Assembly (NCBI GenBank): GCA_965217605.1
Contig: CBDCJB010000014.1
Span: 12,407-76,406 of the forward strand
Direction: 5' to 3'
From: Gammaproteobacteria bacterium
Lineage (GTDB): Bacteria; Pseudomonadota; Gammaproteobacteria; Ga0077536
DNA length: 64,000 nt
Below the pieces are notes generated by a model, which made no database searches, was not told the origin of the DNA, and worked only from the letters and a program-made list of their open reading frames with translations. Shown here piece by piece: positions 29,883-46,493 of the stretch. Positions within the stretch are counted from its first letter, which is position 1. Each line of letters opens with the position of its first letter. The position numbers and the translations under genes were made by a program.

Positions 29883-30144
29883 GAGAGGTGATCTCTGTGA
29901 GCCGGGCGCCGGCCATCGTTACCCCAGCATTACAGTAGAGCCGACGGCTAACAGCAACGTGCTCGCGAGCGGTGCCGCGTCCTCGTCGAGATGGAACATG
30001 CGAGGGTGTTCGTCTGACGGCTTTGTTGCGGGTAGGGCATTCCCTGGTGTCGGAAAGAAGCGCCGCACCATAGGTTAGACGGAGGATATCCTTACGCTCC
30101 GTTGCTCGAACAAGCCACGCCCAGAAAATCACTAAAAGGAAACC

Positions 30145-31859
30145 ATGAATAAGCAACCTGTCCGCTCACGGCACCCGATCTTGTTCCCGGTTTTGGCAAT
30201 CGGTATCGGCCTGTTCATGGGCTTACTGGTCGCCGAGGGCGTCGCGCGCGTGCTCGAGTACCGCGCAGCGGCCCACAAGCCGCAACAACCTGCGGCCGGC
30301 TCCCTGCCGCAGACGCTCGTTACTACGCTGCGTCCGGCAACCCGCTACGGTTATCAGCCGACTCCGTGGTACGCACGTTTTGCGGGCCGCGCGGTCAACC
30401 TGCACTCGTTGCTTGTGCCTTTCAGCTCCATTGACTGCGACACGCAGTCAATGGGTGATCCGCCGCCCCGCTGCCGCGACGGCTACCAAAATTCGCACGG
30501 CTACCGTGTGCCCGAGTATACGCTCGCGCATCCGCCCGATACTTTCCGTATCGTGATCGTTGGCGACTCCTTTACCTGGGGCGACGGTGTTCGCATGGAA
30601 GAAACTTACCACCGCCGTCTGCAGGAACGTTTCGATCGTGCCCGCGTACCAGATGCGCCGCAGGTGGAGGTCATTGGTCTGGGCGTTAACGCCGCTACCG
30701 CCGTAGACAACATCATTCGCCTATTTGTATACGGTCAGCGGCTGGATCCGGATCTGGTCCTAGTGCAGTTCACCGACAACGACCTCGAGTACCAGAGCAA
30801 TCCGCATTTGCTGGCTCCCGAGCGCGTCCGCGACCCTGTGGACGCCGTTCTGGTGACCACCGCGGTCGGACGCATTTTGCGCAAACTGCGTCCGCGCGAC
30901 ACAGGCACGCTGCGCGACCCGTTTAACCTCCAAAGGGAAAGGAATATCACCCGGACGGACTTGAATGGACGATGTTTACAGGCGCGCTAGACGCGCTCGC
31001 GCGCTGGCGAACCGAGTACGGGGTGCCGGTCGCGTATCTCTCCTTTCCGCTCGTAGACGACGACATTGGGGGCCGTAACTTCGAGCACTACACCAGCTAC
31101 GGTGAGCTTTTTGAGAATCTTTCAAAGTTCGAACACGAGGTTGAGCGGCGCGGCTTTCCTGTACTGCGCGTAAACGACACGTTCCGGAGCCGCGCCGGCG
31201 ACCGCTACCTGGCTGTGAGTGAAATCAACGCGCACTATAATCCGCTGGCGCACCAACTCGCCGGCGATGCGTTGTTCGAGTTTCTCCAGAGCGCGGATTG
31301 GGTCGATACCCGTGGCCCGCGACCGCGAACCGACGATGCGCGCTGGCTGGCCGAGAGCGCATTGCGCCTCGACGCGGTCGAGCGTTGGTCTGACTATCAC
31401 CAGAGTTATGATGAGCAGTTCGAGTTGTTCTCTAGCCTTGGCGAGCTTTACCCAACCGATCCGTGGATCGCAAACACCCTGGCTTTCATCCACCGCGACC
31501 GCGGCGGTGAACACGAAACCTGCCGTAGCCTGTACGCGCGGCTTTTGGAGATCGACCCGCAACACGCGGCACCATGGAATGATATTGCCTTATGTACGAC
31601 CGATATCGATAAGCGAGAGCGGTTGCTCGTGCACATGCTCAACGTGGTCCCCGACCACGTCGTGGGCGCCGAGAATTTGGCTGCGCTGGATGCCCGCACC
31701 GCCCGCCTGCCGCGGGCCTGCGGTTGCTTTCGCCGTATGGCCGACCTGGCGCTCTATCCAAGCAGTTATAACCGGGCTATGGACGGCCTAGAGAAAAACC
31801 GGTGCCAAAAAGTACGTGTCGAACCGTGCCCGGGAGGCGACCCCCTGGCACTACGCTGA
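30145..31859 (+). pseudogene. SGNH/GDSL hydrolase + TPR protein, frameshifted near 30930-30945
   Basis: GDSFTWG, N..G..., LVQFTDND in ORF1; H-N-P block (INAHYNP) and TPR-like repeats in ORF2. The -1 frame is open from ~30933 (KGKEYHPDGLEWTMF). Confidence 0.65.
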
Positions 31860-32089
31860 GCATTCCTGGAGAGATTACTCCCCAGTCCTCGAAAGCGTTA
31901 ACGTTACCGAGCCGTAACTCAATCGTGTCGTTGAGGGCGGTTTCGCAGGCCCGCTACCAACCATTCGACGCTTAGAAAGTCGCGTGTTTAGCCATCGAGC
32001 AATCTCTGTCGATGGCGAGGAACGTTCTGGTAGCGGGCTTTAATTCAATTTATGGTGACAACACCCACCATAATTTCTGAGCAGGATGT

Positions 32090-33784
32090 ATGACCATGAA
32101 CCAGAGCCCCTACCCCCAGTTGAACGAGCGCGCCCAGGGTTGGTTAAAACATCTGTGGCGTAAAGCGACGACACCGGATGATTGGTCGATGAACGGCGAG
32201 CCCCATCCGTGGTGGGATCGCTATTCGACGCCGCCAATGGCCGCGTTTCCGCGCTTCGATCTGGCCGATTCGAGTTATGCGATGGCGGCGATGGCGGACA
32301 AGACGCCCGCTTGGCGCGAAGTGTATACACGCATTCTGGACGAGCTGGTAGAGCGTCACACGACCTTTTGGGCCTTTGTCGATTGGCTGACCCAAATCGG
32401 GCCGGACCCCGATCGCAAGGACTATCCGGAAATCTGGTACGAGTCGCTGATCCCGCAGCATTTGCGCGGTGAATACGACGTGCCGGGCTGGACGGCGAAC
32501 GGTATCGAACCCTGGGGACTACAACCCGATCCAATCGCAGCCGAAGGTGCCCTATTCATCAAGGGCTGGTTCAACCTGGTGATGGGCTTGTATCAATATG
32601 TATCCGGCGATACCAAATGGCATCGACCGTTTGAACTGACGGGCTACGAGGGTAAGAAATTCGAATGGACGCAGCCGCACGTGGCGGAAACCTTAGCGGA
32701 GCTATGCGCGAAACATCCCGAAGGGCTGCATTGCGAAAACACCAAGATCTGGCCGGCATGCATGAGCTCTGCCGGTCTGGGCCTGCAACTCTCGGATACG
32801 CTGACAAGCGCAAGCAATCACTGGGTCTACCACGAGTGGGTAGATTACGCGCAGAAAAACTACATGCATCGCAAGAAAAATGGTGAGCTCGATTGGCTGG
32901 CGATGTATTACGATCCGCTGATCGACTATCAGCACCGCGCAGGCGACGTCGGATTCGCGGGCCTCATGACCACCTGGTATATGTTGCCGCAAAAACAGGA
33001 ACTGGCCACGCGCCTGTATGAACTGGGCGCCGCCGAATTCTCGTGGAACAATCCGCGCGTCGCTGTGCCCGAGGTCATGGATCCGCGCCTGTGGATCCTG
33101 GGTTACTGTCTGGCAACCGAACTCGGGGACGACCTGACCGCCGCGCGCCTGCGGGATGCCTTTCACCAGGCCGCCGAGCCGCGGCATTTCGGCGATGACG
33201 ACGATGAATTCGGTTTTTTCTTCGGATTTGGCGAGGATTGGCCCAGAGGACAACTCAGCGCACTGTTAATGATGACCGAGGTCGGCGGCGTCGGTGCCTG
33301 GCAAGATATTTACAATAGCCCCAACCTCGCCAAATACGGCGAACCGACCGTTGAAGGCGTGGATTTTCCGGCGCTGGGCATTGCGCAGTCTTGGAACGAC
33401 CTGCAACACGGCATGTTGCAGGTATCGACCTACGCGGCCTCGTCGTCACGCCGCGGTGAGGCAACAATGTATCGGGTCACTCAACTACCCGATCCGGAAA
33501 CGGTATTCGTTCGATGTGACGGCAACGAGTTTACGCAGTGGCGCAAGCTCGATGAATCCAGCATCGAGATCACGACGAACGTCGACGACCATTCGTTTCA
33601 GATTTACACCGGCTACCACGCGGCAACGGATGCGCACGACGACTCGGCCGCCGTAACGCGACGGGCACGTGCCGATCACCCGGTGAATGCGCGGGCATTC
33701 GGCGCTGTGCGCACGCAGAGCATCAGTTCGGCGGTGTTGAATGTCGGCGCCGGGCCTGTTGGCTGCCCCTGCTGCCCGGGGTAA
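32090..33784 (+). CDS. Linalool dehydratase/isomerase (LinD)-like protein
   Basis: CENTKIWPAC has the same C-E-x7-C spacing as the LinD catalytic cysteine pair (recalled); aromatic-rich helical-barrel-like body; C-terminal GCPCCPG. Confidence 0.55.
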   Translation: MTMNQSPYPQLNERAQGWLKHLWRKATTPDDWSMNGEPHPWWDRYSTPPMAAFPRFDLADSSYAMAAMADKTPAWREVYTRILDELVERHTTFWAFVDWLTQIGPDPDRKDYPEIWYESLIPQHLRGEYDVPGWTANGIEPWGLQPDPIAAEGALFIKGWFNLVMGLYQYVSGDTKWHRPFELTGYEGKKFEWTQPHVAETLAELCAKHPEGLHCENTKIWPACMSSAGLGLQLSDTLTSASNHWVYHEWVDYAQKNYMHRKKNGELDWLAMYYDPLIDYQHRAGDVGFAGLMTTWYMLPQKQELATRLYELGAAEFSWNNPRVAVPEVMDPRLWILGYCLATELGDDLTAARLRDAFHQAAEPRHFGDDDDEFGFFFGFGEDWPRGQLSALLMMTEVGGVGAWQDIYNSPNLAKYGEPTVEGVDFPALGIAQSWNDLQHGMLQVSTYAASSSRRGEATMYRVTQLPDPETVFVRCDGNEFTQWRKLDESSIEITTNVDDHSFQIYTGYHAATDAHDDSAAVTRRARADHPVNARAFGAVRTQSISSAVLNVGAGPVGCPCCPG

Positions 33785-33804
33785 GGCATACAAGTTCTGA
33801 CAGC

Positions 33805-33943
33805 TGTCCGCTTCGGCTCGTGCGCTGCCGAATTTCGCCATTGCAACACTGCTAAGGGTTAGGTCTGCAAAACGCGCGTAAACGGTCGTCGAGTTGCTTT
33901 AAGCGCTGTGCGGGAGTCTGACTTCGGCTTGCGGCCAGATGCT
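33805..33943 (+). repeat. Composite intergenic repeat, copy A8
   Basis: gtccgcttcggctcg...gcaacactg...ttaggtctgcaaaacgcgcgtaaacggtcgtcga...tgacttcggcttgcggccagatgct. Confidence 0.75.
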
Positions 33944-33951
33944 TAGGGGAA

Positions 33952-34575
33952 TTAAAGGATCTGAGGAACAAATCTGTCCCGACGACTTCGCTGGGACCAG
34001 GAGAGCACTACTCCGAGCCCTCCAGCGAGAAGTGGAAATGGCGCTGGGATGGGGACTGTCACAACACCAACAGTCAGGATGTCCCCTCCATCGCTAAACT
34101 CGCCTAAATCTAATATGAAACCGCCATCGCCCTGAATTACTCCACGCAGCCAGCCGTAAATCAAAGGGTCAATAGACAAGCCGGATACCTTGACGTAGAA
34201 AATGTCGCCCGGCGTCATTTGGACGTTGCCACCGGAAAAGGGGAAATACGAGCCCGGGTTTATGATTGTCTCACCAAATATGGCTTGATCTACTGTGGAA
34301 TTTGCGTGCAAAGCAAAGAGATTAATGAAAGTGTTGTTGTTTACGAGAAATGAGGCCGCAACTCCCTCAATAGGTTCAAACGCGACGCCCAGGACTGTGC
34401 TTAATTGGATGGGTGTCAGGTAGAAATCCGTCCAGTAATGGCAATCCGTTAAGAATTCGCAGGCGATGGCGAAATGGGTCAGATCGTTCGCGTTACGAGG
34501 TATATATATCGTCGACGAGGCCGGCCGCCATGCCGACACCGCGAGCAAACACACTAATAAGGTCAGACGCCTCAT
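33952..34575 (-). CDS. Secreted protein with PEP-CTERM/VPLPA-CTERM-type tail
   Basis: Signal peptide; VPIPAPFPLLAGGLGVVLSWSQRSRR. Confidence 0.7.
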   Translation of the reverse strand: MRRLTLLVCLLAVSAWRPASSTIYIPRNANDLTHFAIACEFLTDCHYWTDFYLTPIQLSTVLGVAFEPIEGVAASFLVNNNTFINLFALHANSTVDQAIFGETIINPGSYFPFSGGNVQMTPGDIFYVKVSGLSIDPLIYGWLRGVIQGDGGFILDLGEFSDGGDILTVGVVTVPIPAPFPLLAGGLGVVLSWSQRSRRDRFVPQIL

Positions 34576-34749
34576 TTCCCGTCCTCCCGCGCCACTCTCA
34601 CGTCGGTTCCACAGGGCCGCTTCGATAATACCGTTTCAATAGCTGCGATTACTAGAGATTCTAGGCAGTGTAAATGTAACGAATCGTGCCAACCAGTCTG
34701 AGCGCGCATGAGAAACATTCGGCGTTAACCCGAATTTTTCAGACCTCAA

Positions 34750-34833
34750 ATGTCCGCAAAGGGTTGAGCCGCCTGATCTCGGCAGCGCAGCACTGTTATA
34801 AGTTACGTCTGCGATCCTCTCGTAAGTAGCCAT
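34750..34833 (+). repeat. Composite intergenic repeat, copy A9
   Basis: atgtccgcaaagggttgagccgcctgatctcggcagcgcagcactgttataagttacgtctgcgatcctctcgtaag. Confidence 0.8.
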
Positions 34834-35007
34834 CCCGGATCGAAACTAAGTTATCCTCGACGCGTAAGCACCCGTGGCGCATAAGCTGAAAGAGATCGGC
34901 GATCATTTCGGTCTGCATAATTCGTTGATCCACCGAAACATCAGAATCTCCCATGACAGCAAGGCATAAGGCAAGGCCTGGTACGGTACCAGTTTGGTTG
35001 GGGGTAT

Positions 35008-35352
35008 CTAACGTGACAGCGGGCTGGAGCCGCGAAAAATCATCGTTTCGATCACCGTCTGCTCTGAACCACGCAGTTCGTTTCCACGCGGTTCGTCTCG
35101 TTTAACGCATTTGTTTAAGTAGATGGGCGGAGGTAATTTACCGGCTGCTTCATACTTTGCTGCTTGAATTTGAATTCTCTCGGCCAAAGGCTTCTCGCAA
35201 TCCTCTTCAGTACTAAGTTGGCTAAGCTGGGAGCTGCCCGGATCGCTCAATGTTTTTCCCTGGTTACCGACTTGGCGCGCACCGTGGTTATAAGTCGCAG
35301 TCGTACACCCGGCGGCCAACACGCACAACGCACAGATGACTAGTTTTCGCAT
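35008..35352 (-). CDS. Small lipoprotein
   Basis: MRKLVICALCVLAAGC lipobox (LAAG/C); IS3 copy 2 is inserted 9 bp upstream of the ATG. Confidence 0.65.
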   Translation of the reverse strand: MRKLVICALCVLAAGCTTATYNHGARQVGNQGKTLSDPGSSQLSQLSTEEDCEKPLAERIQIQAAKYEAAGKLPPPIYLNKCVKRDEPRGNELRGSEQTVIETMIFRGSSPLSR

Positions 35353-35402
35353 AACACTACTTGGAGTTGCCCCGTTTCCGTGGACGGTATGGCGCTTGGG
35401 TT

Positions 35403-36251
35403 TCAAGCAGCCTGTTGATAATTATTTTCATAGTTTAGCGGTGATTGCTGACCGAGGGATGAGTGACGACGGTGTGGGTTGTACCCGCCTTCGATGAACG
35501 CGAAGATCGCCATCTTCGCGTCGGCCTGCGTCTTGAAACTGTGGCGGTCGATGAGTTCGCATTCGAGCGTCGCGAAGAAGCTCTCGGCCATCGCGTTATC
35601 GTAGCAATCGCCGACCGATCCCATCGACGGTTGTACACCCATTAACCGGCAGCGCTTGCCGAAGGCGAACGAAGTGTACTGGCAGCCCTGGTCACTGTGA
35701 TGGATCACATTCTTCGGTCGACGCTGCCATAGCGCCATGTTGAGCGCCTCGAGCACGAGCTCAGTGCGCAGATGCGTCGCCATCGACCCGCCTACGACGC
35801 GCCGACTGAATGCATCGACGACAACCGCCAGATACACGAACCCCGCCCACGTCGGCACGTCGGTCACGTCAGCAACCCACAGTGCGTCCGGCCGCGAAGC
35901 CACGAAGTGACGCTCGACCAGATCCGGCGCCGGGCGGGCATCGTGATCGCGGCGTGTCGTGCGCGTCCTTGTGCGTCGACTCACCCCGGCCAAACCCCAT
36001 TCACGCAGCAGCTTGGCGACGCGCTTGCGACCCACGTGCGTCCCCTCATCCGCACGCTCGGCGTGAATACGCGCTGCCCCATAGGTGCCTCGACTCCAGC
36101 TGTGGATGGCCTGGATACGTGCCTTGAGTTGCGCGTCGCGCTTCGACCGCGCTGAGGGTTCACGTGTCCGACACGCGTCGTAGCCACTCGGGGAGACACC
36201 GAGTAGCCGGCACATCGGCGCGATCCGGTAGGTGGCCTGATTCACGCTCAT
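35403..36251 (-). CDS. IS3-family transposase OrfB
   Basis: Near-identical to 8943-9791, with several substitutions including W>G. Confidence 0.9.
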   Translation of the reverse strand: MSVNQATYRIAPMCRLLGVSPSGYDACRTREPSARSKRDAQLKARIQAIHSWSRGTYGAARIHAERADEGTHVGRKRVAKLLREWGLAGVSRRTRTRTTRRDHDARPAPDLVERHFVASRPDALWVADVTDVPTWAGFVYLAVVVDAFSRRVVGGSMATHLRTELVLEALNMALWQRRPKNVIHHSDQGCQYTSFAFGKRCRLMGVQPSMGSVGDCYDNAMAESFFATLECELIDRHSFKTQADAKMAIFAFIEGGYNPHRRHSSLGQQSPLNYENNYQQAA

Positions 36252-36556
36252 GAACGCGAAGATTTCCTCGAATCGGTCTCCCGAGCGAACCAGGCCGTGG
36301 CTTTTGAAAGGATCTCCCGTTCCTCACGTAGCCGCCGATTCTCCCGACGCAGACGCCGCAGTTCTTCGCGTTCGGCAGTGGTCAGACCGTCGTTGCGGCG
36401 ACCTTCATCACGGTCGGCCTGCGCGACCCCGTTGCGTACGGTCTGTGCGGTCGGCTCAAACTCGCGTGCCAGGTCTTCCGGGCTGCGGCCCGCCCGTACC
36501 CGTTCGATCATCGGTTGCCGGAAGGCCGGTGGATAGGCAGTTCGTGTTGTGGGCAT
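36248..36556 (-). CDS. IS3-family OrfA
   Basis: HTH + coiled-coil LTTAEREELRRLRRENRRLREEREIL; ATGA overlap with orfB. Confidence 0.9.
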   Translation of the reverse strand: MPTTRTAYPPAFRQPMIERVRAGRSPEDLAREFEPTAQTVRNGVAQADRDEGRRNDGLTTAEREELRRLRRENRRLREEREILSKATAWFARETDSRKSSRS

Positions 36557-36932
36557 CGTGGAATCCTCCTTCTAAAAGGGTCAGGTATCCACGAAAGCGG
36601 GTCAACTCCAACTCGCTCAAACCCTTTCTAATGTTAACGGTAGGACGCCAGCAAAGAAACACAACTTACAAAACACCAACCCAAAGGTAATCGCCAGTTA
36701 ATTGGTTCCTTGGCGCTCATCCCCTTCATTTTGTAAACGGATTCACAAAGTATAGCGGCCGCCGCCGATACAGTTATGGCGGAGGTCAGAGTGAACCTGG
36801 CCGACATGACGCGATTGATGAAAATCCGGCAACGCGACATCCATATACAAAAGCGGCCTTCGTACTAGGTAAGCTTGGCGTTTCAGCTCATGGTTTCGGC
36901 GTCGAGCCGAAAGGTTGAGTGCGCCGAGCTAA

Positions 36933-37637
36933 CTAAAACTCGAATCCGAATTCTTCAATATCACCAGAAAAGTAGGCCCGTACTTTTTCCTGACTCTCCC
37001 GGCTGTAATACGATCGGTACGCAGCATGGTTTGATTGATTTAAACGGGGAAGCCCGACAGATTGCAGCTTAATCTTCCGACACACATGATCGAACCCCTG
37101 TTGTAGATTCTCGTATCGGCCAACAAAATCGACCAATATCGTCCCATCCAGATCACTCAGCCAATCCTTCTGTGAAACGGGCCGCTTGTCTCTAAACGCG
37201 CTGCGTTTACGGCTTGCTGATTCGGTTAATCCATCCCGGGCAACCCAATCGACGAATTCATCAAACGACATATCTTTCGTCTGGTTGTAAAACATGTGCC
37301 GCCACGGCCGACCTGTATACGGATTCACCTCAGATTTCGTAAAAAAAAAATACAGCGATACCAACCAATCCCATGAATTCCTGACAAATGCGAATTTGAA
37401 GTAGCTCTCAAATCGGTTTGGTCCGAGCTGTTCGACAATATCAAGCGCGTAATCGTGTCTGTGGTTCGAGTCGAGTTGCAGGCCGAGATGCTTGCAATAA
37501 GGTGATAGGCGGGTTTTCAGGTAGTCGGCATGGTCAAACAGGTTTCTTCGGCGCACGCTATTCAGGGCAGCGGTCATGCTTATACCGCCACTTTTCCATA
37601 CGTGGACGAAGACGAATCTGTGGTGATGCGAGACCAC
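36933..37637 (-). CDS. Sulfotransferase family 2 protein
   Basis: SH...FVFVHVWKSGG.S (5'-PSB), FAFVRN.WD.LVS (3'-PB), DFVGRYENL. Confidence 0.85.
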   Translation of the reverse strand: MVSHHHRFVFVHVWKSGGISMTAALNSVRRRNLFDHADYLKTRLSPYCKHLGLQLDSNHRHDYALDIVEQLGPNRFESYFKFAFVRNSWDWLVSLYFFFTKSEVNPYTGRPWRHMFYNQTKDMSFDEFVDWVARDGLTESASRKRSAFRDKRPVSQKDWLSDLDGTILVDFVGRYENLQQGFDHVCRKIKLQSVGLPRLNQSNHAAYRSYYSRESQEKVRAYFSGDIEEFGFEF

Positions 37638-37788
37638 CGTTGCATTATATATAGGTGGTTCTCAGCGTTCCGGACGTAGTCCGGCTCGCTAAGCAGATCA
37701 CGCTCACCCAACCGCTTAAAGACAGCGGGGCTTGCCAACCCGACGCAGCCCGTGGGATGCTCGCGATGCAGATCCGGAGGAACCCACG

Positions 37789-38355
37789 ATGTATACACGT
37801 GTCAGCAAGGTCCCGGCCGATCAGGTCGACGACGGCATCCGCGCCCTGATGGCCGCATCCGAAGAGGCGCTCGGCGGATCCGAGTGGATACAGGTGATGG
37901 CGCAATCCCCGGAGCTCTACAAAGACTTCGCGCGCTTTTACTACGACCACGTCATGGTCGACCGCGAGGGGCTGACCATTCGACTCACGGAGTTGGTGCG
38001 TCATCGCGTAGCCATACACAACGAATGTTTTTTGTGACAAGGCGTCGTATATCCCTCGGCGAGGGATCAAGGTGTGACCGACGAGTTGATTACCGCCGTG
38101 CGTAACGACCCCCAAGGCGATCGCTTTGACGAACGCGAGAAGGCGGCCTTCCGCCTGGTCGACGTGCTCGCGGGCGACCACCACAAGGCGAGCGACGCCC
38201 TTTACGACGATCTGCGCGAGCACTATACCGAACGCGAAATCATCACCCTTGGCTGGCGCATTTCCATGTTCGTCGGATACGGGCGCCTACTAGCCACCCT
38301 CGGGATGGACACGGTGGGCGAGGCCTGCCCGCTGCCGAGGGCCGTGGGGAGCTAG
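37789..38355 (+). CDS. AhpD/carboxymuconolactone decarboxylase (CMD)-like selenoprotein (CxxU), UGA at 38035-38037
   Basis: Two track ORFs (37732-38037, 38074-38355) are in the same frame. Read-through gives ELVRHRVAIHNE-C-F-L-U-QGVVYPSARDQGVTDE, placing TGA at the second Cys of the AhpD/CMD CxxC. A hairpin follows. Confidence 0.8.
38044..38079 (+). promoter_or_regulatory. Candidate bacterial SECIS element
   Basis: Upper stem atccctc/gagggat (38051-57/38061-67) with a G-starting loop ggc beginning 21 nt after UGA; possible lower stem gtcgtat/gtgtgac. Confidence 0.65.
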
Positions 38356-38383
38356 CTCGAAGACGGGTGCCGAACGACGCGGT

Positions 38384-38782
38384 TCACCCCGTAAGCCATT
38401 CCACGATGTCGTTACGCGACCCGAAGTAAGCGGTTGGAAATTCACCCGGACCTTCAGGCGCCGGTTCCTGACCGATCAGGGGCATGCCACTGGGCATGTG
38501 GAAGGCGAAGCGTTCGACACCGGCCGCGTTGTAGCGCGGAATAACCGCCGTATCGCGCCATTCAGCGTTCATCAGCGCCGGATCCATTCTGAATTGCGTG
38601 GTGTCGACCAGCACCCGCCGGCGACCGCGTCGTTCCAGTTCCGTTACGAAACCGGTCAGCCACGTCTGGAACTCGTCGCCGCTCATCGCGGCCGTCGAGT
38701 CGAACCACCTGATTTCGATCACCCCCATTTCGGTGCGATCGATGATGTCACCGAATTCGTCGCCGTATACGTAGTCCGCCAT
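38384..38782 (-). CDS. Hypothetical protein (possibly STAS/SEC14-like alpha/beta)
   Basis: 132 aa with good codon context; divergent from the LysR gene. Confidence 0.6.
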   Translation of the reverse strand: MADYVYGDEFGDIIDRTEMGVIEIRWFDSTAAMSGDEFQTWLTGFVTELERRGRRRVLVDTTQFRMDPALMNAEWRDTAVIPRYNAAGVERFAFHMPSGMPLIGQEPAPEGPGEFPTAYFGSRNDIVEWLTG

Positions 38783-38884
38783 CTTCTAACACCTCGCCTG
38801 GAATGCAGTCGTCACTCGATGCGCCTATATAAAGCGAAATCTTCTTTTTCTACAATGGAAAATAATTCAATATAATATTCCAAT

Positions 38885-39790
38885 ATGGAAATTAAGAGGT
38901 TGCGCCTGTTTCGCGCGGTCGTCGAGGCCGGCGGCGTCAGTCGCGCTGCGGAGTTGATGCACGTGACGCCCGGCACGATCTCCAAGGCCCTGCGTCAAAT
39001 CGAAGCGGACGTCGGGCGCGTTCTGTTCAAGCGCGAAGGACGCCGCCTCGTGGTCAATGCCGCGGGCGAGCGCTTGTACCGCGAAAGCGCGCAGTTGATC
39101 GACGAACATGCGCGCGTGCGTCGCTGCCTGGACGATCTGGAAGAACCGCACGGCGACGCTTTGCGGATCGCCTCCTTCGAGGTCTTCACGACCTATTGTC
39201 TGGCCCATAATCCGACGCTCGAGGCTACCCCCGCCATCGTCCACGAGCTGCCGGTCGAAGAGATCGGCGAGGCCGTGCGGGTGCGGGAAGCCGATGTGGG
39301 CGTGACCTAAGTACCCGTTCCGCACAGCGATCTCTCGTTTAGACGAGTCCGCCGCATCGGCTTCGGTTGTTACGCACGGGTCGGCCGCTTCGAAGACCAC
39401 CCGTTCAACGAGGTGCCCTTCGCGGTACCCGTACACCGCATTCGCGGCGCGATTGCCGAATTGTCGGCCGTTGACGGATGGCCTTATGGCCGCGTGCGGC
39501 GCCTGGTCCGATATCGGCTTACATCGCTGGAATCGGCGCTGGCCTTGGCCCGCGCAGGCCTGTGTGCGGTCTTCATCCCGCATTTCATCGCGGGGCTGCA
39601 CAATCGATCGGCCAGCGCCGAAGCGCGCTTGCGGCGCCTCGCCGAACCCCGCCGAATGCCGCAGTCCGCACAGTGGGTCCACGCCGTGACCCGCACGGAC
39701 GCCGAGGAGGTACCGGTCGTAGAATCCTTTCTGCAATGCCTGAGCCGTGTCATTACCGATGGTGAACGGGCGATTCGAAATGGGCGCTGA
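38885..39790 (+). pseudogene. LysR-family transcriptional regulator with in-frame TAA at 39308
   Basis: LysR HTH (LRLFRAVVEAGGVSRAAELMHVTPGTISKALRQIE). The downstream ORF is in the same frame (ADVGVT*VPVP). Confidence 0.8.
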
Positions 39791-39856
39791 TGGCCCTGGC
39801 GTCGATGTATCTCAATCACTCCGTACGATGGCGCTCCTGTTACTAGAAGTGGATAC

Positions 39857-40684
39857 ATGATCCGAGACCTCAGCGAAGCGGCGCGGACGCTAGTAGCGCC
39901 GAGGATTGTCTTGTTCGACTGGCACGCAACGTTGGTGGATACCCTCGACGCGATGTATCACGCGGTCGATGACATGCTGCCGCGCATTCCCGAACTGGGC
40001 TTATTTGATCGCCTCGTTCCGAGCGCGCTGTCCAAAACGCCGGAAGATGCCCGGCTCGTCGACTATGTGCGCCAGTATCAGGCTTTGCATCCGCGCATCA
40101 AGGCGGAACGCAAAATCTCACGCACGGATATTTTCGAGGTGCTGTTCGGATACGACGACGAGGCTAAACGTATCGCGCACGAAGCGTTCAACGATGCATA
40201 CGCCGATCATTATGGCGAAGTTCACCCGTTTGAAGGCAACGAACGGGCCCTGTTATTGGAGTTGCACGAGTTCGACGTAAAGATCGGAGTGCTCACGAAC
40301 CGCGAACGGGAATTCTTTGATCACGAGTTGGCCGTGGTCGAAGGCGGTTCATGGGTGGGATTGTTCGATACCGTGGTATGCGGTGGCGATACACAACGGC
40401 GCAAGCCCAGCCCGGAGCCCATCTTTAAGGCCCTCGCCAATATCGGCGCCTTCCCGAGCCCCGAATGCTGGTACGTCGGTGACAGCACGACGGACGTCGC
40501 GGCGGCGAAACGCGCCGTGAGCACCTCGATTTTTTTCAACGGCGCCGGCTGGGAGCGCGCCTGGCTCGATAAAATATTTCCAGGTACGCCAGCTCATCCC
40601 TATCAACCGGACGCGATCGTCGACAGCTTCGCGGAATTCAGATGGCTGTTCGAAGAATGCCTCTCGATCGAGCATAGGGCGTGA
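39857..40684 (+). CDS. HAD-superfamily hydrolase (phosphoglycolate phosphatase-like)
   Basis: LFDWHATLVDT, LTN, RKPSPEP, YVGDSTTD. Confidence 0.9.
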   Translation: MIRDLSEAARTLVAPRIVLFDWHATLVDTLDAMYHAVDDMLPRIPELGLFDRLVPSALSKTPEDARLVDYVRQYQALHPRIKAERKISRTDIFEVLFGYDDEAKRIAHEAFNDAYADHYGEVHPFEGNERALLLELHEFDVKIGVLTNREREFFDHELAVVEGGSWVGLFDTVVCGGDTQRRKPSPEPIFKALANIGAFPSPECWYVGDSTTDVAAAKRAVSTSIFFNGAGWERAWLDKIFPGTPAHPYQPDAIVDSFAEFRWLFEECLSIEHRA

Positions 40685-40702
40685 GCGCTTTACATGGATG
40701 AT

Positions 40703-40733
40703 CCCGGATTCCGCTGCGCTCCATCCAGGCTAC
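40703..40733. repeat. GTAG-type REP element
   Basis: cccggattccgctgcgctccatccaggctac; same family as 47208-47278. Confidence 0.8.
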
Positions 40734-41206
40734 GTCGAGACGGAATCCGGGACCATTCCGTCATGCTTGCACTGCACAATTGCAAACAACCGTTGCGGTC
40801 GGACCCTTTCGCTATTCCCTCGCCGGGAGCGCAGCTAAACTTGGCACGGCTTCATGAAGAAGCCTGTTGATCGCTGCAAACCGAGTTCGAGCGTGTCGTA
40901 CAACCGCTCGGTGTGAAAAGAATTCGGGGGCAGTATACGTTTCGCTGTTGCACGTAATAGACGACGCGCGGTACCCACGGTGTATTCGTATACTGTTCCC
41001 GAAACCAACGCCACAAGACCGCGCAGCAAACCCACTTCCGTTTCATTCACCTGCAAACAACGACGTTCGAGGACACCCGCGGTGTACCTCGCCCACCGCC
41101 GTATCGACCGCGGCGGAACATCGGTAAGATAACCGCGCAACTCAAGCGACACCACGTGAAGAAAAACACCGTGAGGAAACTAGTGCCCTGCCTATTACCG
41201 TAATCA

Positions 41207-42103
41207 GTGAGTAAGCCCGTCCTCGGCCTCCACGGCGCTTGGCGCGGAGTCGCGTTGGCCGTGGTCGTAGCGGTCAGTTTCGCCCTCAACACCACCTTGT
41301 CGGCGATGGCCTACGCGGGCGGCAGCAACCCGTTGACCTTGCTGTTCGTGCGCGCGGCCATGGCATTCGGCGTGTTGCACGTGATCCTCGGGTCCCGGGG
41401 TATACCGCGCACCCTACCGCCGGCAAAACGTTACGCGGCATTGGCGTTGGGGATCCCGATGGGGATCGGTTCGTATGGGCTGCTCAGCGCCATCGAGTAC
41501 CTGCCCGTCGCCCTTGCGGTGGTCATTTTTTACACCTATCCGATCCTGGTGGCCGTAACCGGCTGGGTCACGGGCCGCGAGGTGTTTCGGTTGCCGTTCG
41601 CCATCGCGGCGGTCGTCGCGTTCGCCGGTGTCATCCTGGCGCTCAATATCGTCGGCGCCAAACCCCATCCCGTCGGCGTTGCGCTCGCATTCATGGCGGC
41701 GGTCATGATCGCGACCATGTATACGCTCAATGATCGGCTTCGCGAAGACGGTGATCCCCAGCCCATCACACTTCACATGCTGGGTGCGACCTTCGTCGGC
41801 TACGGCGTGGCGTGTGCATGGAGCGGTGATTTCGCGTTACCGGACACGGTTTCGAGTTGGGTAGGGTTCATCGCCGCACCCTTTTTCTACACTCTGTCGA
41901 TCAGCATTCTGTTCGTGGTCATCTCGATTATCGGCCCGATGCGCACAGCGTTGCTGATGAATGTGGAACCCGTGGCGAGCGTGGTCTTGGGTTATCTGCT
42001 TTTGAGTCAGCGGCTGAGCGGGATCCAAATGATCGGCGTGGCCCTGGTCGTCGGCGCCGTGGTGTGGATCGAAGGATCGAAATCCAGCACGGCCAAGGCT
42101 TGA
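41207..42103 (+). CDS. DMT/EamA family transporter
   Basis: About 10 TM helices; two EamA halves with YTYP and NVEPV.S motifs. Confidence 0.9.
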   Translation: MSKPVLGLHGAWRGVALAVVVAVSFALNTTLSAMAYAGGSNPLTLLFVRAAMAFGVLHVILGSRGIPRTLPPAKRYAALALGIPMGIGSYGLLSAIEYLPVALAVVIFYTYPILVAVTGWVTGREVFRLPFAIAAVVAFAGVILALNIVGAKPHPVGVALAFMAAVMIATMYTLNDRLREDGDPQPITLHMLGATFVGYGVACAWSGDFALPDTVSSWVGFIAAPFFYTLSISILFVVISIIGPMRTALLMNVEPVASVVLGYLLLSQRLSGIQMIGVALVVGAVVWIEGSKSSTAKA

Positions 42104-42297
42104 AATACACCGGCGCCTCACACCACCGAATCCGCGCCGAATAATCGCCTCGACGAGATCGGGTTTTCTTCATTAAATAGGGTACGGACCGGCCGATCCC
42201 ATGGCCGGCCCAGAGGGGCCGATTGCTGTCTTGTCTGTATACGATCACGGCTTCGTAATCGGCACGATCCTTTCTGACCAATTTACGGAGAACAACC

Positions 42298-43059
42298 ATG
42301 CGTTACTTCTTATCGCCAAGCCGGAGCCTGGCCACCGTAGTCATCGCGATGATGGTTACGGGCACCGCAAGCGCCGCTTTGGTACAGGAAATCTATGACG
42401 ATTTCACCTTGCAATAAGACGATGCGGTGATGACCTTGTTCGGCAAGCCGCTCGCCGGGGGCAACACGGTATTTTTCTTACCGACGCAATTCAAAGCTTT
42501 TCTACCCGCGGACGAGACCGCCACGTCAACCCGGGTGTTGCAGGTGGACGACACGACCAACTTCGCCATCTTTCCGCACGGCAATCAGATCATCACGGAC
42601 CTCAAACTGGTCGAACAAGGCGACTACACCCACATCGGGGGCGGCTTGTTTGACGGATACATCGTCCACGGCCGTGTGTTTGTGCGCCACGCAGATAGTC
42701 CAGCGCAATTCGCATCGACGCCATTCGAACACACCTTCACGGACGGCAGTGATGCCACTATCCTCGATGTGTGGGAATTCGAGCAGGAGATAGCGACTCC
42801 CGGCCTGCCTTCCGATGTCTGGATTACGATCGAGAATTTCTTGGTGATCATCGACCAGGGACAGAGCGTTGGGCTTCCAGGCCAACAACCACAGGGTGGT
42901 TTCGGCAGCGAGGTGTTCATCCAGAAGAAGTTCATTGGCTTTGAAGTCGGCATCGCGCCAGTGCCCATCGCGCTGACTGCGATGCCCATACCCGCGGCTT
43001 TTTGGTTCATGAGTTCCGCGCTCGCCGCGTTGGGCGTGGTCAAGCGACGCGCGCGTTAG
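42298..43059 (+). pseudogene. VPLPA/PEP-CTERM-type secreted protein with in-frame TAA at 42415
   Basis: ggag RBS, ATG 42298, signal peptide MRYFLSPSRSLATVVIAMMVTGTASA in the same frame as track ORF 42427-43059; tail MPIPAAFWFMSSALAALGVVKRRAR. Confidence 0.75.
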
Positions 43060-43124
43060 GGGTTGCGCTCTTGAACGCGGCGCCGCAGGGCTGCGGTCGG
43101 CTTGCCGTGTCGGTTAAACGCCGA

Positions 43125-44435
43125 TCACTTGGCCAAGAGTGTCATCGCGCCGATGACCATGGCCTCCACGCCCGTCTTGACCGCTGGCGCGGGATCGATC
43201 TTGAAGTGCGGCGAGTGATGAAAGGCCGCTGACGCCAAGTCGTGCTCGGGCGTCCCGCCAACGCGGAAATAGACGCCCTTGACGCCGGTATCGGGGGCGA
43301 CGAAGTGGGCGAAATCTTCCGCGCCCATGCCGGATCGCGGCGTTTTGCCCAGCCGGTCCGTGCCAAAGTGTTGCTCGAACGCCGCCACGAGCCGCGCGCG
43401 GGTGTCCGCGTGGTTGATGGACGGTGGCGTGGATTCCGTCTTCGAACGCATGACTTCGGGTAGCTTGTCTTGCGGTACACCGAGCGAGCGGGCGACGCCA
43501 TCGACGACGCCGTCGATTCGATCGAGCAAAATTTCACGCGTTGCGAAACTGTCTGCACGAACGGTCACTTTCATGTCCACGCGTTCGCCGATGATGTTGT
43601 GTTTCGATCCGCCATGGATGGCACCGACCGTGATCACGCCCGGCTCCAGCGGATTGATCGAACGGCTGACAATGGTTTGCAGCGCCACCACGATGTGCGC
43701 GGCGACCAATACCGGATCGACGGTTTTATGCGGATAGGCACCGTGGCCGCCGACCCCGTGAACGACGATGTCGACGCTATCGGAACTGGAGTAGGCGATG
43801 CCGGAGCGTACTTCGATCCTGCCCGCGGCGACCTCGGAGGATACGTGGAATGCGAGTGCATAGTCCGGTTTTGGAAACCGGCTGTACAGACCATCGTCGA
43901 GCATCGCGCGGGCGCCGGAAACGCGCTCTTCGGCGGGTTGCCCGATCAGCACCAGCGTACCGGACCACTGATCCCTACTGGCCGCGAGCTGGCGCGCGGC
44001 GCCGACCAGCGCCGTGATATGCACGTCGTGACCACAGGCATGCATCACGGGCTGCTCGATCCCGTTGATGTCGACCTGGCGCACCGTGGAGGCATACGCC
44101 AAGCCTGATCGTTCCTCGATCGGCAAGCCGTCCATGTCCGCGCGCAGCATGACCGTTGGTCCGCTGCCGTTCGCGAGTACCGCCACGACCCCCGTGCCCC
44201 CAACGCTTTCCGTCACGTCATAACCGAGTGTACGAAACGCTTCTTCAAGACGCGCGGCCGTCTTGAATTCCCGGTGCGAAAGCTCCGGGTTCGCGTGGAA
44301 ATGTTTGAAGAGGTCCTCGAGATGGGCGTCATAGTCGTTCGCGATCGCAGCGCGAAGCGGTTCGGCGCCTGTAACGCTACTCGTTAACGCGAGCCACGCA
44401 GAGAATAGAAGGCATGGCGACGAGTACGTCTTCAT
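43125..44435 (-). CDS. M20 family amidohydrolase (hippurate hydrolase-like), secreted
   Basis: HANPELS..E, LRADMDGLP, MHACGHD, QPAEE, GGHGAYPH, MGAEDF. Confidence 0.92.
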   Translation of the reverse strand: MKTYSSPCLLFSAWLALTSSVTGAEPLRAAIANDYDAHLEDLFKHFHANPELSHREFKTAARLEEAFRTLGYDVTESVGGTGVVAVLANGSGPTVMLRADMDGLPIEERSGLAYASTVRQVDINGIEQPVMHACGHDVHITALVGAARQLAASRDQWSGTLVLIGQPAEERVSGARAMLDDGLYSRFPKPDYALAFHVSSEVAAGRIEVRSGIAYSSSDSVDIVVHGVGGHGAYPHKTVDPVLVAAHIVVALQTIVSRSINPLEPGVITVGAIHGGSKHNIIGERVDMKVTVRADSFATREILLDRIDGVVDGVARSLGVPQDKLPEVMRSKTESTPPSINHADTRARLVAAFEQHFGTDRLGKTPRSGMGAEDFAHFVAPDTGVKGVYFRVGGTPEHDLASAAFHHSPHFKIDPAPAVKTGVEAMVIGAMTLLAK

Positions 44436-44451
44436 GCAAAAAGAGGATGCC

Positions 44452-44889
44452 TCACGGCTCACAAACGAACACCGGGATGTCCCGCGCCGTGCGTTTTTGA
44501 TAATCCTCGAACGGCGCATAGTGTTCGACACAGGTCGGCCACAGCGCGGCTTTCTCGGCAGCGTCCGCCAGGCGTGCGCGGAGTTTTCGGCGTGCGCCAC
44601 CCTCTTCCACCTCGATATCGGGGTGGGCGATCAGATTGTGGTACCAACGTGGATTATTCGGCGAGCCGGCGAGCGATGCGACCAGGATGACGTTGTCGCC
44701 GTGCGGGACGTACATCAACGGGATGGTGCGCTGCTTACCCGATTTTGCGCCGGTCATCGTTACGAGGCAGATGGAGTCGCCCGCGAATTTATTCATGAAG
44801 CGTCCGCCGCTCACTTTATAGATCCATACGTTCAAGCGCGTGAACGCCTTGACCACCCAATGGGCCGGCGGTTTGCCCGTGTCGGCCAT
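44452..44889 (-). CDS. Nitroreductase family deazaflavin (F420)-dependent oxidoreductase (Ddn-like)
   Basis: TMTGAKSGK.RT.PLMY, AS.AG.P.NP.WYHNL.AHP, Y..YQ.RT.RDIPV. Confidence 0.9.
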   Translation of the reverse strand: MADTGKPPAHWVVKAFTRLNVWIYKVSGGRFMNKFAGDSICLVTMTGAKSGKQRTIPLMYVPHGDNVILVASLAGSPNNPRWYHNLIAHPDIEVEEGGARRKLRARLADAAEKAALWPTCVEHYAPFEDYQKRTARDIPVFVCEP

Positions 44890-45083
44890 TACGGCGCTCT
44901 TCGACCGCGTTGTTTCATCTCCTCCTGATACTCGCGATTTTCCATGCGTGCTTGCAACACGAACCACAACAGCCACAACACTACGCCGATTACGGCGAGC
45001 ACCATCTCACTGCCGACGAACGGGTAGATCGCGCCGATATCAGCGATCTCGCCGGCCCAAGTCTCGATATTTCCTGTCGCCAT
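44889..45083 (-). CDS. Small single-TM protein following Amt
   Basis: W...IADIGAIYPFVGSE + TM helix; TAATG overlap with the next gene. Confidence 0.7.
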   Translation of the reverse strand: MATGNIETWAGEIADIGAIYPFVGSEMVLAVIGVVLWLLWFVLQARMENREYQEEMKQRGRRAP

Positions 45084-45101
45084 GTTGATGACTCCTTCGA
45101 T

Positions 45102-46493
45102 CTAAGTTGGAGAAGAATGCGCTTGTTCGGCCGCTTCGATCTCCTTCATCGCGGCTTCGAATGCGATTTCCTGACCTACATCGAGCCCCTTGATCTCGAT
45201 TGCTTCGGGGATCCGCAGCAAACCGAATTTTTTCAACGCGGTCGAAACGATGTAAGCGGGTAGAAACCCGAGCACGAAAAACATGATGACCGCGCCGGCC
45301 GTCTGCCCCCAGGGCGAAATGGTCGCGTAATCCGGATTAGGCGATGCCGGATAACCCCACAAGACGAAGCCCGCGATGATGACGCCAAAGCATCCCGCAT
45401 AACCGTGCACGGCCACGGCGCCTACGCCGTCGTCCAGTTTGAATCGATTTTCGACCCAGTAATGTGCTTTGTATGCGAGCGTGGCGCCGGCCGCGCCGAT
45501 CAGCAGCGACTGTATCGGGTGATACAGGTCATTACCCGCCGACGCGGAAATAACGCCGGCCAGCGCGCACGAATAGGTCCAAAACGGATCACCCTTCGAG
45601 ACCAGATAACCGGCCAGGAAACCGCCCGATAGCGACATCAGGAAATTGAAGGTGATGGCCGACAAGGTCGTCGGTCCGAGGTAGATGTTGGTTGCAGAAA
45701 AAAATACGCCGTCGCCCGCCTGGATGTCAAACATCGGGATGTTGCAGGCCGCGTAAAATCCCCAAAAGCCGGTAAAGATGATGAACAGCCCGACGGTCGC
45801 CAACCAGGGGTCGTGAGGCGGGATCTCCCGTGCCGTGCCATCCGGCCGGAAACGGCCGATGCGCTGGCCCAGGGGGATCAAGACGCCGAGCGCAAAACCG
45901 CCCGCGATGGCGTGAATGACGCCCGACGCGTACGCATCGTGATAACCGAGCTTCTGCACCATCCAACCGTCCGGATGCCAACCCCACGAGGCATCGATGA
46001 TCCAAAGCACACAACCGATGAGAACAGCCAGTATCCAAAACGCATTGGACCGGATGCGCTCGATGGTCGCGGTCGATACGATGGCGGCGACGGTCCAGGA
46101 AAAGAGCAGGAAGGCCCCCCAGAAGACGCCGTTCAGACGTGACCATGTCGCCGTGTCTGCGCTCGTTAAAGCTTCACTCCCCGGCGGGCCGCCCAAATGC
46201 GGCCCCATGAGTTCGCTCCACGCCAGCGCGTGCGGCGCGTCCACCAGGCCGCCTGTTATGCCGGGCCCGTTCGGAAACGCGAAATAGATCCACCAGCCCA
46301 CGAAGAAGAATCCCAGCGTGACCAGGGGGATGTGCATGGTGACCTGCATCAGGGTGTGCAGGCGATTCTTTGCGCGAGACGCGGCAACCTCGTAGACGCA
46401 GAACCCGACCTTGATCAGGAACATCAAGACGATCATCACCCAGTAGTAAAATTCGGTGAACAGGATCGTCAGAGCCGTGGTTTCCTGATCCAT
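45102..46493 (-). CDS. amt: Ammonium/methylammonium transporter (Amt family)
   Basis: WGW...GW....GYHDAYASG.IH, GL..I..GF.GF, DD.VGAVAVHG motifs. Confidence 0.9.
   Translation of the reverse strand: MDQETTALTILFTEFYYWVMIVLMFLIKVGFCVYEVAASRAKNRLHTLMQVTMHIPLVTLGFFFVGWWIYFAFPNGPGITGGLVDAPHALAWSELMGPHLGGPPGSEALTSADTATWSRLNGVFWGAFLLFSWTVAAIVSTATIERIRSNAFWILAVLIGCVLWIIDASWGWHPDGWMVQKLGYHDAYASGVIHAIAGGFALGVLIPLGQRIGRFRPDGTAREIPPHDPWLATVGLFIIFTGFWGFYAACNIPMFDIQAGDGVFFSATNIYLGPTTLSAITFNFLMSLSGGFLAGYLVSKGDPFWTYSCALAGVISASAGNDLYHPIQSLLIGAAGATLAYKAHYWVENRFKLDDGVGAVAVHGYAGCFGVIIAGFVLWGYPASPNPDYATISPWGQTAGAVIMFFVLGFLPAYIVSTALKKFGLLRIPEAIEIKGLDVGQEIAFEAAMKEIEAAEQAHSSPT

Follow-up and report, generated by a model that had tools for sequence, protein, structure and literature searches.

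Our results indicate, with a confidence approaching certainty, that positions 37789–38355 of the 64 000-nucleotide stretch of DNA analysed here (hereafter the window) form one gene with an AhpD/CMD fold, in which the only in-frame TGA is read as selenocysteine (Sec), i.e. a real selenoprotein gene. Judged from sequence and from a structural model, the product is very probably, when the whole explanation including Sec is considered, a thiol/selenol oxidoreductase of the 'peroxidase-related', COG2128-like type with this fold. The original prediction had read the locus as a Sec-containing AhpD/CMD thiol oxidoreductase, and the aligned codon in homologues, a covarying hairpin behind the UGA and the Sec machinery found elsewhere in the genome all support that reading.

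Reading frame, aligned codon and fold

The frame opens at ATG 37789–37791, runs for 188 codons (Sec counted) and ends at the stop codon TAG 38353–38355 (Table 1). Its single interruption is the TGA at 38035–38037 within the motif C80-F-L-U83, where the frame reads I-H-N-E-C80-F-L-[TGA]-Q-G-V-V-Y-P-S-A-R-D-Q-G-V-T-D-E. The N-terminal sequence MYTRVSKVPAD is common to the window protein and its homologues. Translation table 11 splits the gene into one ORF that runs from 37732 or 37789 to 38037 and another that runs from GTG 38074 to 38355. Each element of the original description, i.e. two same-frame ORFs joined by one TGA, a product of 188 aa, a GGAGG motif and the start at ATG 37789, was verified in the sequence. 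The accompanying claim that standard gene callers split the gene also agrees with what the database contains, namely many halves of ∼104–126 aa (the same splitting is visible in dozens of entries) that end in '...C-x-L' or begin right after it. Such half-length entries flanking the column are the signature of callers cutting a selenoprotein gene, and the two metagenome contigs with such halves contain TGA at the aligned codon.

Table 1. Coordinates of the predicted selenoprotein gene, its sequence elements and its neighbours in the window.
Feature	Position	Strand	Evidence or remark
IS3-family transposase, two overlapping ORFs (HTH_Tnp_1; HTH_21 + rve)	35403–36556	-	∼1.2 kb upstream
Sulfotransferase	36933–37637	-	Upstream of the selenoprotein gene
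Shine-Dalgarno sequence GGAGG	37776–37780	+	8 nt 5' of ATG; read from the sequence
Complete predicted selenoprotein CDS, 188 codons + TAG, C80-x-x-U83	37789–38355	+	Translation, Pfam CMD, shared N-terminus, fold model
Glu68 codon, 12 residues ahead of Cys80	37990–37992	+	T67 and E68 invariant in alignment A2
Cys80 codon TGT, first residue of CxxU	38026–38028	+	C80 invariant (A2); aligned to the first Cys of PA0269 N-G-C-A-Y-C
In-frame UGA, U83, predicted Sec	38035–38037	+	TGA 82/85, TGC 3/85 at the aligned codon
Whole putative SECIS element; weaker lower helix 38043–38046 with 38071–38074	38043–38074	+	RNAalifold consensus, pair counts
SECIS upper stem-loop AUCCCUC/GAGGGAU, 7 bp, loop GGC 38058–38060	38051–38067	+	Covariation, RNAalifold
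Cys180 codon, C-terminal G-x-x-C-P-L motif	38326–38328	+	C180 invariant in A2; ≥90% conserved in A1
132-aa ORF, no Pfam family	38384–38782	-	Downstream, convergent with the selenoprotein gene
LysR-type regulator, in-frame TAA 39308–39310	38885–39790	+	HTH_1 before the stop, LysR_substrate after it

The aligned codon was inspected in 85 gene copies, which come from 80 loci in species-representative genomes, from two metagenome contigs and from the window itself. It is TGA in 82 of the 85 copies and TGC (Cys) in the other three (L068, L074 and L076), while all full-length database homologues (183–191 aa; including P0002–P0010) have Cys at the U83 column. The expectation for homologues was Cys, or else TGA, in the aligned position, and these counts agree with it. 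The in-frame UGA therefore aligns with the second Cys of CxxC, as in the CxxU class. The copies carry lineage labels of the Gammaproteobacteria, Binatia, Myxococcota, 'Deltaproteobacteria', Methylomirabilota and Alphaproteobacteria, among others, and nearly all matches with E <1e-20 in relatives of the window's genome show one internal TGA. All of the closest independent assemblies, namely L008, L010 and L011 (85–87% protein identity) and L009 (74% over the C-terminal half), have TGA and, behind it, the same hairpin.

Downstream of the TGA, codon differences between the window gene and L010 comprise 47 synonymous and 16 non-synonymous changes, with third positions dominating (the codon comparison rests on L010, L012 and L013, with L011 left out because of an indel). 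The frame 3' of the TGA is under purifying selection, which implies translation of the 3' half in the same frame as the 5' half.

Some copies have peculiarities of their own. The contig of L008 (490–585) contains an N-terminal half that is 87% identical to that of the window protein, with complete divergence from ∼50 nt past the TGA, immediately beyond the hairpin; this short contig is probably chimeric or has been rearranged. Two 'delta proteobacterium' MAGs contain tandem CxxU paralogues ∼600–640 nt apart, both with TGA (L042 at 2602 and 3238, and L046 at 2648 and 3238). Many Binatia genomes contain two unlinked copies of the family.

For family assignment, the read-through product was scored with Cys in place of Sec. 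It reaches 30.3 bits with the Pfam CMD model (PF02627), above the cut-off of 23, over residues 41–124 and profile positions 1–82 of 84. By contrast, it stays below the cut-offs of NCBIfam TIGR01926 (peroxidase-related enzyme; 44.8 bits versus 81.8, residues 7–175), NF053654 (YciW-related (seleno)protein, groundwater type; 58.4 bits versus 310) and NF041047 (GSU3128 family (seleno)protein, a distant AhpD homologue; 13.6 bits versus 110), and gives no match to NF041238 in NCBIfam scoring. The curated threshold makes the window protein a relative of TIGR01926 rather than a member, and the subfamily lies below the cut-off of every curated NCBIfam AhpD-type selenoprotein model.

The AlphaFold model is all-helical (pTM 0.72), with core pLDDT values of 73–97 from about residue 41 onwards and low-confidence termini. 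In structure comparisons, this predicted fold resembles the PDB entries 2prr, 3c1l and 2pfx ('AhpD core / peroxidase-related'; TM 0.70–0.74), and also the thiol-dependent debrominase Bmp8. A profile of the full-length homologues matches P. aeruginosa PA0269 (2ijc and 2o4d), 7xw1, Atu0492, 2prr and 3c1l with E-values down to 4e-15; in the profile match, N-G-C-A-Y-C of PA0269 aligns onto N-x-C80-x-L-U83, so that its CxxC falls on C80 and U83. Together with the Pfam CMD score, this upholds the earlier assignment to an AhpD/CMD fold with a motif equivalent to CxxC. One CMD domain and one compact predicted fold cover both half-ORFs, and the model places C80-x-x-U83 at the N-terminus of a short helix (H81–84).

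A hairpin downstream of the UGA

We confirm the 7-bp stem with a GGC loop described in the original prediction: the arms atccctc (38051–38057) and gagggat (38061–38067) form a stem that begins 13 nt after the UGA, and the loop begins with the 21st base past its A. As a single sequence, the 61-nt local fold is unremarkable (z = -0.13 versus shuffles). Because its energy is no better than that of shuffles, the weight of the hairpin comes from comparison only. An Rfam E-value scan of 37700–38400 returned no SECIS family and only a chance miRNA match.

The comparison relies on an alignment of 31 distinct sequences that is gapless from the UGA (A3). RNAalifold pairs columns 17–23 with 27–33 and adds a short lower helix. 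All seven upper-stem pairs show compensatory double-sided changes; 93.5% of the upper-stem cells are paired, versus 38–46% when the partners are slid by 1–3 columns, and the observed covariation score was reached in none of 500 column shuffles. Stem variants include AUCCCUC/GAGGGAU, UGUCUC/GAGACA, CGCGCU/AGCGCG, UGCCUU/AAGGCA and UGCUCU/AGAGCA. Since the hairpin sits in coding sequence, its conservation is partly due to constraint on the protein. However, some of the compensations pair a synonymous third-position change (Ala GCG to GCA) with a Ser-to-Leu change on the opposite arm, and protein constraint alone is insufficient for these. In the same alignment, the loop has an invariant G24 and C26 and a near-invariant G25. 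The lower helix is paired in 80.6% of cells, with double changes at one pair.

The hairpin register, with at least six of the seven pairs, is kept in 76 of the 82 TGA-bearing homologues, whereas the three Cys forms, all of one clade, retain 1–3 of the seven pairs and have lost the register. In a subclade that includes a paralogue on contig C7 of the same genome, the hairpin is shifted by ∼3 nt and has a 4-nt loop (e.g. GCCUUGC-GGUC-GCAAGGC). An apical loop that contains G, placed shortly 3' of the UGA and conserved among Sec forms, is what characterizes a bacterial SECIS. The hairpin has these features, and in the 31 aligned sequences the SECIS-like element claimed at the outset proved to be conserved and covarying, with G in its loop.

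Selenocysteine machinery, neighbourhood and alternative readings

The original prediction implied that selABD would be found elsewhere in the genome. On contig C13, selA (592.9 bits) and the adjacent selB (415.6 bits) exceed their cut-offs, as does selD (279.7 bits), and a tRNA-Sec (selC; anticodon tca) lies at c[225246,225341]. The selD gene (C13:190458–192698, +) is a 746-codon frame in which an N-terminal pyridine-nucleotide-disulfide (Ndh-like) oxidoreductase is fused to SelD, and the SelD active site has Cys, not Sec (CGGCGSK); this is the Ndh-SelD fusion of the GOS paper (Zhang and Gladyshev 2008, PMC2398784). Two further CxxU genes with in-frame TGA are present, one at C7:293764–294336 (+; ...NDCFLUMHARLAGARQEG, followed by the hairpin GCCTCGC-AGGT-GCGAGGC) and the other at C1:∼2399–2938 (+; ...INGCPFUVDINSF). 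With these, the genome has three or more AhpD-like selenoprotein genes, and its sequence suggests that it runs an active Sec system that serves them.

In the window, the gene appears to be monocistronic. The ORF overlap of the IS3 element has the usual layout of a programmed -1 frameshift. The LysR-type gene, whose frame at the stop reads ...A-D-V-G-V-T-stop-V-P-V-P-H..., is probably a pseudogene, and an HAD hydrolase gene lies beyond it. None of these four neighbours (i.e. the sulfotransferase, the 132-aa ORF, the LysR-type gene and the HAD hydrolase) adjoins the homologue at any of the 80 loci. ORF content around the homologues is heterogeneous, and there is therefore no conserved operon or partner. 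A promoter and terminator scan gave no convincing promoter 5' of the gene and no terminator 3' of it, and no ahpC-like gene is adjacent to it in the window. In same-genus genomes the best match has 56% identity, while copies that are 81–86% identical occur in other MAG lineages; this sequence pattern suggests that the window copy was acquired horizontally. An integron cassette was considered and rejected, as the gene has no flanking family of attC-like repeats within 30000–46000.

The decay of the neighbourhood and its mobile DNA make a recently dead copy conceivable from sequence, i.e. a CxxC AhpD-like gene in a decaying, IS-rich region that was killed by a TGC/TGT-to-TGA change, with a coincidental hairpin. 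The nearby IS3 transposase and TAA-interrupted LysR gene, a single-sequence fold no better than shuffles and the lack of a close orthologue in same-genus genomes would fit such a pseudogene. We nevertheless consider it very improbable, because the TGA stands at the exact column in 82 of 85 genes from many lineages, purifying selection acts on the 3' half, the hairpin shows covariation in the same register, and the genome has kept a complete Sec machinery and two CxxU paralogues.

A similarly slight probability attaches to a pair of small genes, one of 82 aa and one of 93 aa that starts at GTG 38074, or to decoding of the UGA by other means, i.e. near-cognate read-through as Trp or Cys. Calling with table 11 does yield two ORFs, and in E. 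coli termination is leaky at a UGA with C as the next base, which counts for read-through that does not involve Sec. However, a single CMD domain and a single AhpD fold extend across both halves, no ribosome-binding site precedes GTG 38074, and many homologues have no start codon at that place after the TGA. Moreover, the residue at the column in full-length homologues is Cys rather than Trp, and under either variant the conserved hairpin would have no role. Least likely is a sequencing or assembly error that hides a TGC/TGT codon of an ordinary Cys-type AhpD-like protein: Cys forms do exist in the family (L068, L074, L076 and P0002–P0010), but four independent assemblies (L008, L009, L010 and L011) carry TGA with the same hairpin, and the window keeps a SECIS register that is absent from the Cys forms. 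A single selenoprotein gene thus remains the preferred reading.

Active site, proposed mechanism and known relatives

The canonical relay of M. tuberculosis AhpD is E-x11-C-x-x-C-x3-H, in which Glu precedes the first Cys by 12 residues and His follows the second by four. Glu68 is present in the window protein and in all 85 copies, although the search pattern itself demanded Glu there, and its spacing of 12 to Cys80 equals the Glu118–Cys130 spacing of M. tuberculosis AhpD. The canonical relay is incomplete, however: position +4 is Val87 in the window protein, and across the 85 copies it is always R, V, L or M and never His. Because His is absent at +4, the chemistry may differ from that of canonical AhpD.

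A G-x-x-C motif lies ∼96–97 residues past Sec in 84 of the 85 copies. In the AlphaFold model, residues 173–188, which include Cys180, have pLDDT <50, and this tail is probably flexible. One possible, though rather doubtful, interpretation is that these proteins form a distinct, uncurated AhpD-like subfamily in which Sec is near-fixed, the relay His is missing and C180 acts as a third redox residue that resolves a C80–U83 selenenylsulfide or shuttles electrons to a partner. If true, this would be a three-residue relay (C80, U83 and C180) unlike that of classical AhpD; the redox role of the C-terminal Cys is speculation.

By analogy with the established bacterial Sec pathway, UGA 38035 would be decoded rather than terminated, with the hairpin 38051–38067 (extended 38043–38074) acting as a bacterial SECIS that recruits SelB-GTP-Sec-tRNA(Sec) to the ribosome and so directs Sec to position 83. 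The result would be a C80-x-x-U83 redox centre that replaces the CxxC of Cys homologues. As in AhpD and PA0269-type proteins, this centre might cycle between selenol/thiol and selenenylsulfide forms and thereby reduce a hydroperoxide or an oxidized partner (e.g. a peroxiredoxin). Selenium insertion, substrate and reductant are points that we infer.

In E. coli fdhF, the SECIS has a G-containing apical loop that is bound by SelB. The window element resembles this type in being a stem-loop ∼13 nt past the UGA, with G in the apical loop and a location inside coding sequence. It differs in its loop, which is GGC (CGGCG if the closing pair opens) versus GGUC in fdhF, and the window copy lacks an evident conserved bulged U.

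M. tuberculosis AhpD is the founding alkylhydroperoxidase and re-reduces AhpC. The window protein shares with it (1gu9) the Glu-x11-Cys-x-x-Cys/Sec spacing (E68, C80 and U83), but the structural match is only remote (TM 0.46, E ∼1), and, unlike M. tuberculosis AhpD, the window protein has neither His at +4 nor an adjoining ahpC-like gene. Closer are 2prr, 3c1l, 2oyo, 2pfx and the PA0269/AhpD structures (2ijc, 2o4d and 7xw1), which have the same all-helical fold (TM 0.58–0.74). These solved structures are Cys proteins, whereas the window protein has CxxU; PA0269 has C-x-x-C-x3-H, whereas the window family never has His at +4; and, compared with the solved AhpD-core proteins, the window family has an additional conserved C-terminal Cys.

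Selenoproteins of this kind have been known since 2005, when AhpD-like (COG2128, CxxU; 27 sequences) and CMD-domain (PF02627, CxxU) members were reported from the Sargasso Sea (Zhang, Fomenko and Gladyshev; PMC1088965). The names 'AhpD-like 1/2' come from the 2008 GOS paper, in which 'AhpD-like 1', with 299 Sec versus 902 Cys forms, ranked fourth among the families by abundance (Zhang and Gladyshev 2008, PMC2398784). A 2026 review lists AhpD-like (TIGR01926), CMD-like (PF02627), AhpD-related (NF041238) and distant-AhpD (NF041047) selenoproteins (PMC13188914), and BSepDB has an AhpD-like family page (PMC13326102). The original statement that the class was already known, mainly from marine data, is therefore correct (PMC1088965, PMC2398784 and PMC13188914), and the window gene is an additional member, belonging to a subfamily that scores under the cut-off of each curated NCBIfam selenoprotein model.

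The window gene is probably mis-annotated. On the sequence evidence, a single 188-residue selenoenzyme would take the place of two fragments labelled 'hypothetical', or of a pseudogene annotation. The subfamily escapes the current models of NCBIfam and Rfam, and the 31-sequence alignment of the coding-embedded SECIS could seed a curated subfamily model.

The AhpD-like and CMD CxxU selenoproteins of marine and other metagenomes are like the window protein in their CMD/AhpD fold, in having Sec at the place of the second Cys, in having Cys homologues and in a G-loop SECIS shortly 3' of the UGA. From the published AhpD-like families, the window subfamily is set apart by its NCBIfam model scores. 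Compared with 'AhpD-like 1' of the GOS data, in which Cys forms outnumber Sec forms, Sec is near-fixed in the window subfamily (82 of 85 copies).
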